NCBI GenBank assembly: GCA_051747585.1
Contig: JBNJGH010000009.1
Location: 1-52,163, forward strand
Source: Candidatus Rifleibacteriota bacterium
GTDB lineage: Bacteria > Muiribacteriota > Ozemobacteria > Ozemobacterales > Ozemobacteraceae
Length of the DNA: 52,163 nt
Reading direction: 5' to 3'
Numbering within the stretch: position 1 is the stretch's first letter; each line of letters begins with the position of its first letter. The notes beneath the pieces are model-generated. The model had not been told where the DNA came from, made no database searches, and saw nothing but the letters and a program-made list of their open reading frames with translations. Both the position numbers and the translations under genes were made by a program. This document shows positions 23,670 to 51,298 of the stretch, one piece after another.

Positions 23670-25112
23670 TTAATAGCGATAATGGTTTGGTTTGTAAGGT
23701 CCTTCTTTTGGTACTCCAATATAATCAGCCTGTTCATCGGTGAGTGGAGTCAGCTTGACACCTATTTTTTCAAGATGCAGGCGTGCAACTTCTTCATCAA
23801 GCTTTTTGGATAGAGTATAAACATTTGTTTCTCTTGGGTTTGTCCAGAGATCGATTTGAGCGAGTGTCTGGTTAGAGAATGAATTGCTCATTACAAAACT
23901 TGGATGACCGGTAGCACAACCAAGATTAACCAGTCTGCCTTCAGCCAGCATGTAAATGCAGTGCCCATCTTTATAGGTGAATTTATCAACCTGGGGTTTA
24001 ATATTCAGCTTTTCAATTTCCGGCCAGTTTTCAATTTTTGACATCTGAATTTCATTATCAAAATGCCCAATATTGCAGACAATAGCTTGATCTTTCATCT
24101 TAGAACAATGTTCTGCGGTTATTACATCTTTATTGCCTGTTGTAGTTACGTAGATGTCACCGGCGCCAAGTGTGTCTTCTACGGTTTTAACTTCGAACCC
24201 TTCCATAGCAGCCTGCAGGGCGCAAATAGGATCGATTTCAGTTACGATTACTCTGGCGCCGAAATTTCTCAGGCTTTGAGCACATCCTTTTCCTACATCG
24301 CCATATCCGCATACAACAGCAACTTTACCTGCGACCATAACATCGGTAGCACGTTTTATTCCGTCTGCGAGACTTTCACGACATCCGTAAAGATTGTCGA
24401 ATTTCGATTTGGTTACTGAATCGTTTACATTTATAGCGGGGAAAAGAAGGGTCTTGTTTTCCATCATTTTATAAAGGCGATGAACACCGGTAGTGGTTTC
24501 TTCGCTTACGCCTTTGATTTGAGCAGCAAATTTAGTCCATTTTCCGGGCTCTGAGGTAAGGGTTTCTTTTAGAACCCTCATTAGTTCGGCTTCGTCTTCG
24601 CCACCTGGAGTTTTGTCAAGAACTGTTGGGTCTTTTTCTGCCTGGCAGCCTACGTGTACCATAAGTGTAGCATCGCCACCATCATCTACAATAAGGTCAG
24701 GACCATTTCCATCCGGCCAGGTCAATGCTTCTTTTGTGCACCACCAATATTCTTTAAGAGTTTCGCCTTTCCAGGCAAAAACCGGAACACCACTCTTTGC
24801 CATTGCGGCAGCAGCATGATCCTGGGTAGAGAAAATATTACAGCTGGCCCATCTGACGTCAGCGCCAAGCTCAATGAGAGTTTCAATAAGCACTGCTGTT
24901 TGAACCGTCATGTGCAGAGAGCCCATGATTTTAGCGCCTTTTAAAGGTTTTTTTGAGGCATATTTGTTACGAATTGCCATAAGACCGGGCATTTCATGTT
25001 CTGCGATTTCAATTTCTTTTCGTCCGTGTTGCCAAAGATCGATATCTTTGATTTTGTATGCTGGTCTATCAGTAGTTTTCATGGGTTCTTTCTCCATGGC
25101 AGTCTGGGTCAT
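23670..25112 (-). CDS. ahcY: Adenosylhomocysteinase
   Basis: [58 protein letters not shown] and [10 protein letters not shown]. Confidence 0.99.
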
Positions 25113-25158: not shown

Positions 25159-25187
25159 ATTATCTCATCCCGCGCCCAAAAAGTCAA
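25159..25187 (-). promoter_or_regulatory. Putative sigma70 promoter of ahcY
   Basis: Minus strand TTGACT-N17-GATAAT. Confidence 0.55.
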
Positions 25188-25204
25188 ACCGCCGCCGGGC
25201 AGTC

Positions 25205-25503
25205 AGCAATTCTCGGTCAGCGACCATCAACTCGTTTAAGAAAAAGAACATTTCTCACACTAAGCCTCAAAGCCACAAAGAAAATAACCACAGAGTTCAC
25301 AGAGCAGCACAGAGAATCTTTTTCAGCCTTGTTCCCGGCATAAACAAGCTCTAAGAAAAGCACCAGTGTTTTTCTTAGAGCTTGCTTATGCCGGGAAAGC
25401 CGGCGACAAAAAGTCGCTGGCTGATTGTCCCCCGGACAATCCACGGCTGAAAAAGATAAAAAAATCCACTCGGTGGCCTCGGTGATCTCGGTGGTTTAAA
25501 TTC
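25205..25503. repeat. Structured non-coding repeat (MITE/REPIN-like), copy 1
   Basis: Leader, (CACAGAG)x3 arm, 13-bp IR at 25316-25328 and 25445-25457, hairpins at 25332-25397, 25398-25422 and 25423-25441, then (CTCGGTG)x3 arm. Homologous to 47734-48030 and 50961-51212. Confidence 0.93.
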
Positions 25504-25622
25504 TATATTTGACAGAAAGAAATAAGAACAAAACTGGTTTGGGACCCATCCGATAAAGCCTGGCTGAAAATTGCTGAACCGCAGCCAGGGAAGAAGGTAC
25601 ATCAAGTTAGATCATAAAATTA

Positions 25623-47656: not shown

Positions 47657-47733
47657 TAATTTTTTCCCCGGAAAACGCAGTAGCAGTATTCTATCAGAAC
47701 TCCGTGGTCCTTTCAAACGAACCCTTGTCGAAT

Positions 47734-48030
47734 AGCAATTCTCGGTCAGCCACTATCAACATGTTTCAAAAAAGAATATGCCTCACACTAAGCCGCAAAG
47801 CCACAAAGAAACTAACCACAGAGCGCACAGAGAACACAGAGAATCTTTTTCAGCCATTGTTTTCTTCTTCAGCAAGCCTTCAGAAAAGCACTCGTGTTTT
47901 TCTGAAGGCTTGCTGAAGAAGAAAAAGCCGGGCGGTGAAACCGCCGGCTATTTGTCTACAGGACAAATCCTGGCTGAAAAAGATTAAAAAATTAACTCCG
48001 TGCCCTCGGTGGCCTCAGTGGTTTAAATTC
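47734..48030. repeat. Structured non-coding repeat, copy 2
   Basis: 13-bp IR at 47843-47855 and 47972-47984; hairpins at 47860-47925, 47926-47949 and 47950-47968; same core orientation as copy 1. Confidence 0.93.
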
Positions 48031-48172
48031 TTTATTTGCCCTAAATAAATAAAACCAGAACTTTTTGTAATCAGCTAATAATAGTTGCCAGAGAATTCCT
48101 GGATCATTTCTCAGTTGTTATGTCATTATATTTTGATCAAGCTCGTAATCGTCATCGTTGTCGTAATAGCTG

Positions 48173-48242
48173 TCGATTCCGATACCCGATACCGACCCCG
48201 ATACCCGAAAAGAATCTCACACCGAGCCGCAAAGCCGCCAGG
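48173..48242 (+). repeat. 70-bp direct repeat, copy A (3' side of the Fic gene)
   Basis: TCGATTCCGATACCCGATACCGACCCCGATACCCGAAAAGAATCTCACACCGAGCCGCAAAGCCGCCAGG; 69/70 identical to 49606-49675. Confidence 0.95.
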
Positions 48243-48263
48243 ATCGCAAAGGCTGAAAAAGAT

Positions 48264-49445
48264 TTACTGAGTTTTCGGCAATTCAGTTCCTTCGCTCATG
48301 ATTTCAATATAGCCGGCGTAACTGAAAAATCGGTTTCGTTTGCGCGCCGTCAGTTCTCTAATGATCCCCAAATCTTGTAGATGCCTCAGAGATTTGTTAA
48401 CTGTGGCTGGGCTGATGCCTGTCTTTTCCACTAACCATCCTGAGTTGGTGATTGGGTGCTCCATCATTGCTCGATGAACCTGCAGAGTAGATGATGCTGC
48501 CCGACCAAGATCTTCAATCTTACCCTGATCTCTTTTCGCTAGTTTCAGTAATCGCTGTGCTGTTTCAAAAGCCTGAGTAGCGGTAAAGATAACTGCTTCG
48601 GCAAAAAAGTCTAACCAGGCCTCCCAATCGCCTGTAAGGCGAACGTTATTGAGCAGCTCATAGTAATATTGCCGATGGGTTTTGAAGTATAGGCTGAGAT
48701 ATAGCATCGGCTCACGCAATACATTTTGCTCACACAAAAGCAATGTTATAAGTAATCTGCCAAGGCGACCATTGCCATCAAGAAATGGGTGGATTGTTTC
48801 AAATTGTACGTGGGCCAGCGCTGCTTTAAGCAACAAAGGGGTTGTTTCTGGTTGGTCATGCAAAAAAAGCTCTAATTTATCGAGACAATCCATCATTTCT
48901 TCAGCAGGTGGTGGCGCGAATGCTGCGTTTCCTGGTCGAGTTCCGCCGATCCAGTTCTGGCTCGTTCTGAATTCTCCAGGTGTGTGCTTACTTCCCCGGC
49001 CCTTGTAGAGTAATACCCCATGGATTTCACGAAACAACCTCAGCGAGATTGGTAGACCGGAGTTTAACAAATCTAATCCATGGTTGAGAGCGGCAACATA
49101 GTTGCTCACTTCGCGAACGTCATCCAGTGGCACCCCGGGCTCCTTGTCCAATTCGAAAAGCAGAAGGTCTGTCAGTGATGATTGAGTTCCTTCTATCATT
49201 GAAGAGAGAACGGCTTCTTTGCGGACATACATGTAAAGAAACAGTGAAGTATCTGGTAACAAAGTTGAGACACTGTCCAATTTTCCCAGCGCCAGCATTG
49301 CCTGATCAAATTTTTGCTGCAGTTCTGCCTTCCAGACAATTGCAGGTTTTGGTGGCAGAGGAGCAGGCACAAAAGCTTGCGCTTTTTCACCTACCGTAGA
49401 TATGGTTACATATTTTCCCTGAAGCTTTCGTTTCATTTGAGCCAC
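48264..49445 (-). CDS. Fic family protein (N-terminal inhibitory motif, C-terminal winged HTH)
   Basis: HPFLDGNGRLGR active site, SSMIEGT inhibitory motif, C-terminal GISPATVNKSLRHLQDLGII. Start GTG 49445 or ATG 49436. Confidence 0.95.
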   Translation of the reverse strand: MAQMKRKLQGKYVTISTVGEKAQAFVPAPLPPKPAIVWKAELQQKFDQAMLALGKLDSVSTLLPDTSLFLYMYVRKEAVLSSMIEGTQSSLTDLLLFELDKEPGVPLDDVREVSNYVAALNHGLDLLNSGLPISLRLFREIHGVLLYKGRGSKHTPGEFRTSQNWIGGTRPGNAAFAPPPAEEMMDCLDKLELFLHDQPETTPLLLKAALAHVQFETIHPFLDGNGRLGRLLITLLLCEQNVLREPMLYLSLYFKTHRQYYYELLNNVRLTGDWEAWLDFFAEAVIFTATQAFETAQRLLKLAKRDQGKIEDLGRAASSTLQVHRAMMEHPITNSGWLVEKTGISPATVNKSLRHLQDLGIIRELTARKRNRFFSYAGYIEIMSEGTELPKTQ

Positions 49446-49453
49446 CTTAAACC

Positions 49454-49478
49454 TAAAATAAGACTCGCCGTTATTTTA
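49454..49478. promoter_or_regulatory. Operator-like inverted repeat upstream of the Fic gene
   Basis: TAAAATAA-N9-TTATTTTA directly upstream of the start codon. Confidence 0.4.
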
Positions 49479-49605
49479 ACTTAACAATATATCCTAAATT
49501 AACCTGTCGAGATTTAAAAAGCAATAAATTCCGGGGGATTCTATGGCGTCCCTCTCTTCCTGGTCAATCTCGTCCTCCTAATCGTAGTCGTTGTCGTCAT
49601 CGTAA

Positions 49606-49675
49606 TCGATTCCGATACCCGATACCGACCCCGATACCCGAAAAGAATCTCACACCGAGCCGTAAAGCCGCCAGG
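49606..49675 (+). repeat. 70-bp direct repeat, copy B (5' side of the Fic gene)
   Basis: One mismatch to 48173-48242; continues into CACAAAGAAAATAACAACAGAG, a degenerate left arm of the structured repeat. Confidence 0.95.
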
Positions 49676-49708
49676 CGCACAAAGAAAATAACAACAGAGA
49701 ACCAAAGA

Positions 49709-49994
49709 ACACCGATTTCACTTGAGGAAGTTTTCGGAGAATAATGAGCCTCATTCCATTTATAAACCACAATTTGCTAAGGATGTTAAAGCATACGCTA
49801 CATTGAAAAAGCAGATTGAAAAGAAGGAAAAATTTAACCCCATAATTCAAAGTGCGCGAAAAAAATCCACCCTCATAAGCCTTGCCGGAAAACTTGGCAT
49901 TTCCCCCGGAATTGTTGCCGGCAGATACCAGCACATAACCCAGAATTACAAACTCTTCAACAATCTAAAAACAAAATTCACCTGGGAAAAATAA
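49709..49994 (+). pseudogene. Mosaic of toxin-antitoxin gene remnants (antitoxin C-terminus, frameshifted RelE-like N-terminus, HigA/ImmA-like C-terminus)
   Basis: TPISLEEVFGE* with TAATG overlap; MSLIP/YKPQFAKDVKAY split by a frameshift; LAGKLGISPGIVAGRYQH...LKTKFTW at the end. Confidence 0.55.
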
Positions 49995-50272
49995 AGATAA
50001 TTTCGTGCTCATCTTATTTGCCCGGATAAAATGTAATAAACCCAGATAATTGAATAAGGTGTCTCTTGATTCACAACTTAGTATCATTCTAAGGCGTTCC
50101 TTGAATGAATGTGTGAGAAAAGTTTCTAATATTTATTCATTTGACCAGTCAGATATTCCTGGATTACACTTGTATTGCTGGAGAAATCCAGGCTATTTCT
50201 CTATATCTCGCTAATATAACGACGAATCAACAGAAAGGTAGCCCCGAACATTTGAAGAAAAGTTGCGATATC

Positions 50273-50842
50273 ATGAAAAATTGTCTTTTGTATTGTTTCG
50301 TCCTGACGCTTGTTTTCTCTCTCATCGGAAGCGCCGCTTCAGCACGAAAAAGAGCCGGAGTCCAATTTGAAGACTCCATTTCCATAGAGGGGACCGAACT
50401 CACCCTTAATGGGTTAGCCGTTCGTTCAAAGCGGGTTTTGTTCTTCAACTACGGAATCTACGTTGCCGGTCTCTATCTGGAAAACAAATCCCAGGACGGA
50501 GAGGCCATCCTGGCAAGCGACACGGCCCGTCACCTGGTTACGCATTTTCTCCACTCGAGAGTCAGCCGCAAACAACTGACCGATGTCTGGAAGGAGAGTT
50601 TTAAAAGGCATAAATACCAGGGGAAAAAGGTCGATCAATTCATTGCTTTTCATCCCAGAGACCTGAGAAAGGGAGAAAAAATGATCTTCACCTACCTTCC
50701 GGGCAAAGGAACCAAAGTGACGATGAAAGGCAAAGTCTGTGGAACAATCCCCGGAAAAGACTTTGCCGACGCCCTCTTCTCCATTTACATCTCCAAAAAT
50801 GCGGGCTTACGCAGAATCAGGGACGGACTCCTCGGAAAGTAA
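50273..50842 (+). CDS. Secreted chalcone-isomerase-like protein
   Basis: Signal peptide, AGVQFED, LTLNG...R, YVAGLYL, Y.PGKGT.V and DFADALFSIY...LLG. Confidence 0.88.
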   Translation: MKNCLLYCFVLTLVFSLIGSAASARKRAGVQFEDSISIEGTELTLNGLAVRSKRVLFFNYGIYVAGLYLENKSQDGEAILASDTARHLVTHFLHSRVSRKQLTDVWKESFKRHKYQGKKVDQFIAFHPRDLRKGEKMIFTYLPGKGTKVTMKGKVCGTIPGKDFADALFSIYISKNAGLRRIRDGLLGK

Positions 50843-50960
50843 ACGAAATTTAATATGTAAGAAAAAAATGGCTTTTTTAGATATAAACGATTAAGTGAAA
50901 AAAAGAAATATCATTATATAAAGAGGTTCTATAAAAGCTTTACCCAGTCTATGTTTTCGG

Positions 50961-51212
50961 TTCTCACTCAGAAGCTCAAAATCACAAAGAAATTAACCAC
51001 AGAGAGCACAGAGATTCACCGAGAAATCTTTTTCAGCCGTGGATTGTCCGAAGGACAATCAGCCGGCGGTTTCACCGCCCGGCTTTCACCGCAACAGCCC
51101 GCCCTCAGAAAAACACCAGTGCTTTTCTGAGGGCGGGCTGTTGCGGTGAGCACTGGCTGAAAAAGATTTAAAAATCAGCTCCGTGGACTCGGCGAGCTCT
51201 GTGGTGAAATTT
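50961..51212. repeat. Structured non-coding repeat, copy 3 (core inverted)
   Basis: 13-bp IR at 51026-51038 and 51155-51167; hairpins in reverse order at 51042-51060, 51061-51084 and 51085-51150; flanks oriented as in copies 1 and 2. Confidence 0.93.
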
Positions 51213-51298
51213 CATTAATTTACAGAGAGAAATATAGCATAAATTTTGGAAACCGGCTGGTAAAGCTTTGTTAAGCAATGTGGGGCATTGCCGGGATG

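Follow-up and report, generated by a model that had tools for sequence, protein, structure and literature searches.

The window, a stretch of 52,163 nt that represents the entire contig C9 of its genome assembly (labelled G000), carries three copies of one repeat, and all three lie between the genes of the ORF listing (Table 1). In each copy a leader is followed by AAC(CACAGAG)x3, ATCTTTTTCAGCC, a core, GGCTGAAAAAGAT, an A-rich spacer and (CTCNGYG)x3, and each arm of all three copies contains three CACnGAG words. This succession of modules, the constant core length of 116 nt within the window and the intergenic location had been described in the initial annotation and are borne out here, as is the lack of a transposase in the window: a genome-wide search with six transposase or recombinase Pfam families gave no match on this contig. 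The extent of the repeat was found to be different. The real unit is about 370 bp, reaching roughly 35 nt further to the left and 70 nt further to the right, and the module described earlier is only its nested palindrome. The cores of copies 1 and 2 point the same way, whereas that of copy 3 is their reverse complement with the hairpin order 19/24/66, a point that had been missed.

Table 1. Features of the repeat in the window, with related elements of another genome (positions without a contig name refer to the window)
Feature	Position	Strand	Basis or remark
Promoter-like TTGACT-17 nt-GATAAT of the diverging gene 23670-25112	25159..25187	-	putative, read from sequence
MITE copy 1, full length, 373 bp	25204..25576	+	profile (nhmmer) arms and core, sequence, ends
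Copy 1 left arm (TIR, leader, three heptads)	25204-25315	+	nhmmer
Copy 1 13-bp IRs	25316-25328 and 25445-25457	+	sequence
Copy 1 core, orientation F (long hairpin first)	25329-25444	+	nhmmer
Copy 1 right arm, right end diverged	25458-25576	+	nhmmer
Sigma-70-like promoter TTGAAA-17-TAGAAT (10/12, with TG), facing away from the left end of copy 2	47688..47716	-	predicted, consensus scan
MITE copy 2, full length, 369 bp	47733..48101	+	sequence, ends, DNA fold
Copy 2 left arm	47733-47842	+	profile match
Copy 2 13-bp IRs	47843-47855 and 47972-47984	+
Copy 2 core, orientation F	47856-47971	+	profile match
Core hairpin 2 of copy 2, GGCGGTGAAACCGCC, terminator-like on both strands	47931..47945	.
Copy 2 right arm, terminus TTGCCAGAGAATTCCTG	47985-48101	+	profile match
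Stray fragment: leader-like CTCACACCGAGCCGCAAAG, CGCAAAG word, right half-IR GGCTGAAAAAGAT	48229..48262	+	exact IR match at 48251
MITE copy 3, old, both ends degenerate	50946..51275	+	sequence, profile match
Copy 3 left arm	50946-51025	+	profile match
Copy 3 13-bp IRs	51026-51038 and 51155-51167	+
Copy 3 core, inverted (R) orientation	51039-51154		core model matches the minus strand
Copy 3 right arm	51168-51275	+	profile match
223 bp (heptad arms, IRs, core) missing from a contig of run X1	50999..51221	+	contig joint 50998->51222
G017 278-bp elements	C8:117262-117539, C19:75132-75409, C46:23072-23349
G017 116-bp deletion form	C7:111995-112110

When copy 2 is folded as single-stranded DNA, it forms the three abutting hairpins that had been predicted, closed by the 13-bp inverted repeat (IR) and then by the heptad arms, with an energy of -69.6 kcal/mol (z = -12.2) that was equalled by none of 200 shuffled sequences. 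In an F-oriented core, the T-run of the second hairpin is better on the minus strand; judged from its letters, this hairpin looks like a two-way terminator, a putative role. A stray fragment of the repeat sits 130 bp to the right of copy 2.

The genome (4.14 Mb in 330 contigs, 40.7% G+C) is densely populated by this repeat. The exact 13-mers of the IR occur 206 times and form 68 left-right pairs, and this recurrence, together with the stability of the fold, is far beyond chance. Profiles of the two arms and of the core detected at least 181 left arms, 151 right arms and at least 143 cores, including 110 left-right pairs. For 107 arms a contig end is no more than 400 bp away, and this crowding indicates that the repeat is a main cause of the fragmented assembly. 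In contigs of the sediment run X1, the word depth of the repeat is about 60-115 times that of its flanks; among the runs searched for the stretch, none of RNA contained it. The fixed core length of 116 nt, valid in the window, does not extend to the whole genome, where it applies to 65 of the 95 complete copies, the others measuring 115 nt (6), 117 nt (12), 118 nt (9) and 119 nt (3). The spacers of the 68 exact IR pairs are likewise distributed over 115 nt (3), 116 nt (43), 117 nt (12), 118 nt (6), 119 nt (3) and 164 nt (1), the last being a core variant with two long hairpins. At two loci (C52:1328-1517 and C92:8160-8513 of G000), hairpin 3 is replaced by a second long hairpin of this 164-nt type, and the two ends of a normal core resemble each other (ATTGTTTCC / GGACAAAT); considered together, these observations suggest that hairpin 3 may be an 'unfilled' twin of the long hairpin.

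The ends of the unit identify it as a MITE, or miniature inverted-repeat transposable element. Within a consensus drawn from 60 left and 61 right flanks, conservation begins with CAGCAATTCTCGGTCA and stops at TGACCGAGAATTnCTG, which are mutually inverted, and these 16-bp terminal inverted repeats (TIRs) also bound the 56 full copies listed. The full copies are about 369 bp long and none of the 56 lies inside an ORF of 120 or more amino acids. Direct duplications of 9 bp with at most two mismatches flank 30 of 55 full copies (16 of them perfectly), as compared with 14 of 1959 randomly paired, shuffled flanks that agree equally well. The remaining 25, copies 1 and 2 of the window among them, have no clear duplication, and the 9-bp flanks of copy 1 do not match. 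The non-autonomous, MITE-like nature proposed at the outset is thus supported by TIRs, 9-bp target duplications, more than 140 copies and the lack of coding capacity, and the module with its three CACnGAG heptads per arm, 13-bp IR and three-hairpin core is a palindrome nested within this MITE. At one copy (C13, 11725-12094), the terminal 10 nt of the element (GAGAATTGCT) run on from its right end into the flank as at least three tandem repeats (C13:12080-12130).

The REPIN-like character suggested earlier is not supported in view of the target duplications and of a single Y1 transposase gene, on contig C196, with no element flanking it. REP and REPIN sequences that depend on a RAYT do share with this repeat a high copy number, an intergenic location, palindromes and a doublet-like symmetry, whereas target duplications and long TIRs set the MITE apart. 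The Y1_Tnp gene on C196 (4500-5205; RAYT- or IS200-like) is the only one of the assembly and is cut by the contig end, and a tandem array of the 8-nt word GATTCCGG lies just downstream of it.

Rebuilt empty sites provide a clue about the choice of target. On the left side only, a (G)TCAA motif ends 7 nt before the duplication, corresponding to a CAA at positions -10 to -8 relative to it, and an A/T-rich patch follows about 20 nt further out. On the opposite strand, this target reads as TTGAC together with a -10-like region. The called gene nearest to the left end is transcribed away from the element in 43 of 49 cases, and the distance to the gene's start has a median of 78 bp; the genes on the right are split 22:24 in orientation. 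The left end of the element lies at a fixed distance from (G)TCAA, the complement of a -35 box, beside the 5' end of a diverging gene. At copy 1, the -35 of the promoter-like site is 16 nt from the left end of the MITE, in agreement with the family-wide motif and the bias in gene orientation. Such one-way insertion, at a set distance upstream of -35 boxes, represents an uncommon type of target selection. Any influence of the element on its neighbours, for example with hairpin 2 serving as a terminator, would be a by-product.

Within the element, the core occurs in both orientations, 60 of the 95 complete copies being F and 35 R, and at the long hairpin's tip a G·T/A·C marker has the state GT in 45, AC in 31, AT in 12 and GC in 5 of them. 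The states of the core and the tip and the orientation of the element are mutually independent. Discordance in core orientation was observed in none of 9 pairs of copies with at least 95% identity, in 5 of 93 pairs with 90-95% and in about half of those below 70%, and the tip was discordant in 22 of 72 pairs with 90-95% identity. An arm tree, built from roughly 225 nt and with little resolution, implies no fewer than 21 changes for the core (shuffled mean 28.6) and 24 for the tip (shuffled mean 24.2). The loop of hairpin 3, whose stem measures 8 bp, is inverted in 1 of 37 copies of one type. These orientation counts, the discordances and the tree suggest that flips have been numerous and independent, occurring slowly relative to copying and more often between longer flanking repeats. 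An opposite-strand joint (51024/51170) in the contigs of run X1 has a shorter side of 57 nt, which lies entirely within the repeat and is not locus-specific.

Perfect 13-bp IRs around a segment that is found in both orientations, a hairpin with a direction-dependent, terminator-like signal and a location beside promoters are also what could be expected if the core were a programmed invertible switch, turned over by a site-specific recombinase at the 13-bp IRs and tuning the neighbouring genes. We regard such an inverton as distinctly improbable, since near-identical copies agree in their orientation and the nested tip flips more often than the core and the hairpin-3 loop rarely, a gradient that fits dependence on IR length and not a single recombinase site. 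Moreover, the core contains no promoter-like site, and a search confined to serine recombinases found no match to the domain PF00239 in the assembly. A structural parallel is offered by parvoviruses such as AAV, in whose terminal hairpins a stem closes a branched junction of small palindromes in two inverted configurations. The core shares with them such a stem-closed, branched junction of palindromes in two inverted states. Unlike those ends, the repeats described here are internal to a chromosome and have no Rep-type nickase, and their flips are rare between close copies and do not arise 1:1 with each replication.

The stems of the long hairpin are only 56% identical between copies in which the arms are 80-85% and hairpins 2 and 3 are 81% identical. 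Covariation was assessed with RNAalifold pair counts, direct pair counts and a covariance model. An alignment of 23 copies contains double-sided changes at 28 of 60 pairs and almost no one-sided ones. Across the 53 distinct cores of 116 nt, every one of the 22 outer long-hairpin pairs occurs as two to four Watson-Crick types and is paired in at least 47 of the 53, with mismatches that are G·T in 16 and A·C in 21 instances. In the 13-bp repeat, one double change replaces TT with AA on one side and AA with TT on the other (C115:5956-6097 of G000).

Such covariation, with 28 of 60 pairs compensated and a very stable fold, would speak for a structured non-coding RNA, which the initial annotation had named as a possibility. 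We consider a family of such RNAs, with a four-way junction maintained by selection, very improbable. G·U pairs are not in excess and there are scarcely any one-sided G-U intermediates; the core can point in either direction with respect to its arms, as can the element with respect to the genes on its right, so that both strands and both orientations are represented. No Rfam family matches the window; only generic microRNA-hairpin models were reported, on both strands and at 22-51 bits against cut-offs of 67-211, and the covariance model detects the core in only one of 87 genomes of the phylum. The variable stems also have no target in the genome beyond shuffled controls. A guide-like role for the 36 distinct stem arms was discarded on this ground, the best match in the masked genome being 15 of 15 nt and the same in the controls. 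That wobble pairs are not favoured, that both strands are used and that flips occur all argue for upkeep of the pairing at the level of DNA.

Two papers on inverted repeats (PMC8604942, PMC8794818) describe how template switching between the arms of an IR homogenises the arms and inverts the spacer, and the same two effects, with apparent compensatory changes that require no selection on RNA, would be common to that process and the present repeat. Here, however, there would be three nested levels of inverted repeats, replicated in more than 90 paralogous copies within one genome. By this analogy, we infer that template switching may be acting on the core. Each nested IR would now and then flip its spacer and copy changes from arm to arm, and such flips and arm copying would yield two core orientations, two tip orientations and covarying stems. 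Recognition of the core by shape and length, which had been advanced earlier, is not supported: core lengths vary over 115-119 nt with one of 164, and template switching at the IRs could account for perfect pairing without any reader of shape. The near-constancy of length is instead attributed to common descent, given that backbone and core have descended jointly.

We favour, as the likely reading, that the copies are gene-less MITEs, each about 370 bp long and with a nested palindrome, the core of which has probably been flipped and kept self-complementary by template switching or by recombination between its own IRs. Two features are not fully explained by template switching. The stems change faster than by simple neutral drift, which the process explains qualitatively only, and 76 of 95 copies retain a G·T/A·C mismatch at the tip, although arm homogenisation alone would tend to erase it. 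A more elaborate possibility is that the palindrome is more than passive cargo and that its extruded four-way junction is cut and re-copied by a structure-specific enzyme, which would flip the core and rewrite the 20-bp stems of the long hairpin at a pace well above that of the remaining element, and that the composite would act as a mobile, reversible transcription insulator placed upstream of promoters with its position and orientation fixed; we consider this unlikely.

The heptad arms connect the nested palindrome with a wider group of elements. Within this genome, all 213 triple-heptad arrays are located in MITE copies (212 in called arms and one in a copy cut by a contig end). Elsewhere, the triple CACAGAG pattern was detected in at least 122 stretches from many phyla, the matches listed including Planctomycetota, Acidobacteriota, Chloroflexota, Proteobacteria, Cyanobacteria, Bacteroidota, a Streptomyces and an archaeon. 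Among the matches listed, an inverted counterpart lies no more than 420 nt away for 81 of 149 arrays, and nesting in arrays of other word types occurs in some. Genes of the GxxExxY family (PF13366) are present in 29 of 87 genomes of the phylum, and under a strict rule the same tandem word stands inverted on both sides of 13 of 27 such nuclease loci as compared with 0 of 27 displaced controls; several further loci have mixed words on their flanks. One of the bracketed ORFs was recognised as TIGR04256 with 153.7 bits. No TIGR04256 or PF13366 gene was detected in the genome studied here (93.55% complete) or in the other five genomes of the genus. A literature search for CACAGAG-word palindromes bracketing GxxExxY nuclease genes found no relevant paper.

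In the elements around the nuclease genes as in the present repeat, a variable centre is enclosed by three phased CACnGAG words per arm, the two arrays being inverted. They differ in that the centre here is a 13-bp IR with a 116-nt hairpin cluster, in a genome and genus free of the nuclease, and in that the copies have spread as cargo of a transposon with TIRs and target duplications. In another family of the phylum, one genome (G030; loci C60:2306-2346 and C91:8329-8366) has at least 13 matches to the leader or to the first-heptad part, among them one lone leader right after a stop codon. The same genome contains one CACAGAG-armed element with a different centre and an arm of CACAAAG-type words on its far side.

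The TIR word is strongly enriched in four other genomes of the family (G003, 73 matches; G017, 85; G021, 67; G024, 66), whereas reversed-word controls gave 0-4. In G017, which belongs to another genus of the same family, the TIR bounds 278-bp MITEs that have 9-bp duplications and a different, hairpin-rich palindromic interior. The core, on the other hand, was detected in no other genome or locus examined. A covariance model of 23 diverse copies matched that one genome of the 87 in the phylum, and a BLAST search of the core against all other fetched loci gave no match. The exact 13-bp IR pair was found in no stretch of two public collections (genome contigs and metagenome contigs), from which the records of this genome itself may be missing. 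Stem alleles are common to all 67 pairs of copies whose backbones are at least 90% identical, to 74% of pairs at 80-90% and to 25% at 70-80%, so that backbone and core co-descend. This joint descent, along with the distribution of the parts, points to a single capture, in which a backbone MITE, itself widespread in the bacterial family, would have taken up a heptad-armed palindrome on one occasion.

Some copies show that the module can be absent or substituted. One copy of 155 bp (C11:42995-43149 of G000) retains both ends and the leader without heptads, IR or core, and other word arrays (CGCAAAG, CGTGCTC) occupy the place of the heptad module in some copies. A 1493-nt contig of run X1 matches both flanks of copy 3 and lacks the heptad arms, IRs and core between them (Table 1), the joint falling inside the 8-bp direct repeat ACAGAGAG. 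The assembled contigs compared with copy 1 include no bridging contig and no empty site, and copy 2 is not bridged either. Cross-copy 'skips' such as 47855-51041 and like joints were dismissed as repeat chimeras.

These cases raise the possibility that the module of arms, 13-bp IR and core is itself mobile and homes into one site of existing backbone MITEs by an enzyme or by gene conversion from copy to copy. Loss of exactly the 223-bp module at copy 3 with the backbone kept, the module-free 155-bp copy, the different words at the same place and the same-genus genome G003, whose many TIRs are accompanied by no match to the module query, would all accord with it. We nevertheless judge it unlikely, given that the stem alleles descend together with the backbone, that only 1 of 110 paired elements is free of the module and that no GxxExxY gene was found in the genome or the other five of its genus. 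A joint within an 8-bp direct repeat is what slippage deletion of a palindrome predicts, and the gap at copy 3 is read as probably such an event. On the single-capture reading, the composite would subsequently have multiplied by means of a DDE-type transposase acting in trans.

The search for such a partner was carried out within the genome and its relatives. No TIR pair in the genome, at an assembly completeness of 93.55%, encloses a transposase, and the long-range TIR pairs considered as candidates for an autonomous element enclose ATP synthase and other ordinary genes. PF00872 and PF13358 have no match in the genome. Its sole DDE_Tnp_1 gene was rejected as a partner, having ends that differ from those of the element, as were two rve genes, neither of which carries such a TIR. 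In the same-genus genome G003 (C25:1-518 and C13:1-270), about 225 bp separate the TIR from an IS630-like transposase, of which the N-terminus is present there. At a palindromic contig junction this gene is broken off, and its C-terminus is found on another contig; many contigs of G003 stop about 40-50 nt inside this repeat. A tblastn search with the N-terminus against the genome studied here gave no match. The IS630 family makes TA target duplications. Since the gene is broken and the family makes duplications of this kind, the IS630-like fragment is a weak lead to the partner.

Among known systems, prokaryotic MITEs come closest, especially the Correia element of Neisseria (PMC10969869, PMC11602168). 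According to PMC10969869, Correia MITEs can be inverted in place and the MITEs of pneumococcus insert into one another. Correia and other prokaryotic MITEs resemble the present element in being short, non-coding and high in copy number, with TIRs and target duplications, and in being intergenic, often adjacent to promoters and able to fold into long hairpins. What sets the element described here apart from Correia MITEs is an additional palindrome nested within it, whose arms are phased heptads and whose centre has three hairpins, together with orientation-specific insertion that keeps a constant distance upstream of a -35-like motif. The target duplication of Correia is TA, as opposed to 9 bp in this MITE.

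The element is, in sum, a composite MITE whose nested, heptad-armed palindrome flips, a remarkable version of a commonplace genomic parasite. By supplying over 90 natural replicates of an inverted repeat nested at three levels, a single genome provides clean data on how repeat length relates to rates of flipping and homogenisation, and it also serves as a warning that strong covariation can arise without RNA. For the heptad palindromes tied to GxxExxY nucleases, it means that they can hitchhike in an ordinary transposon and expand without the nuclease in the genome.
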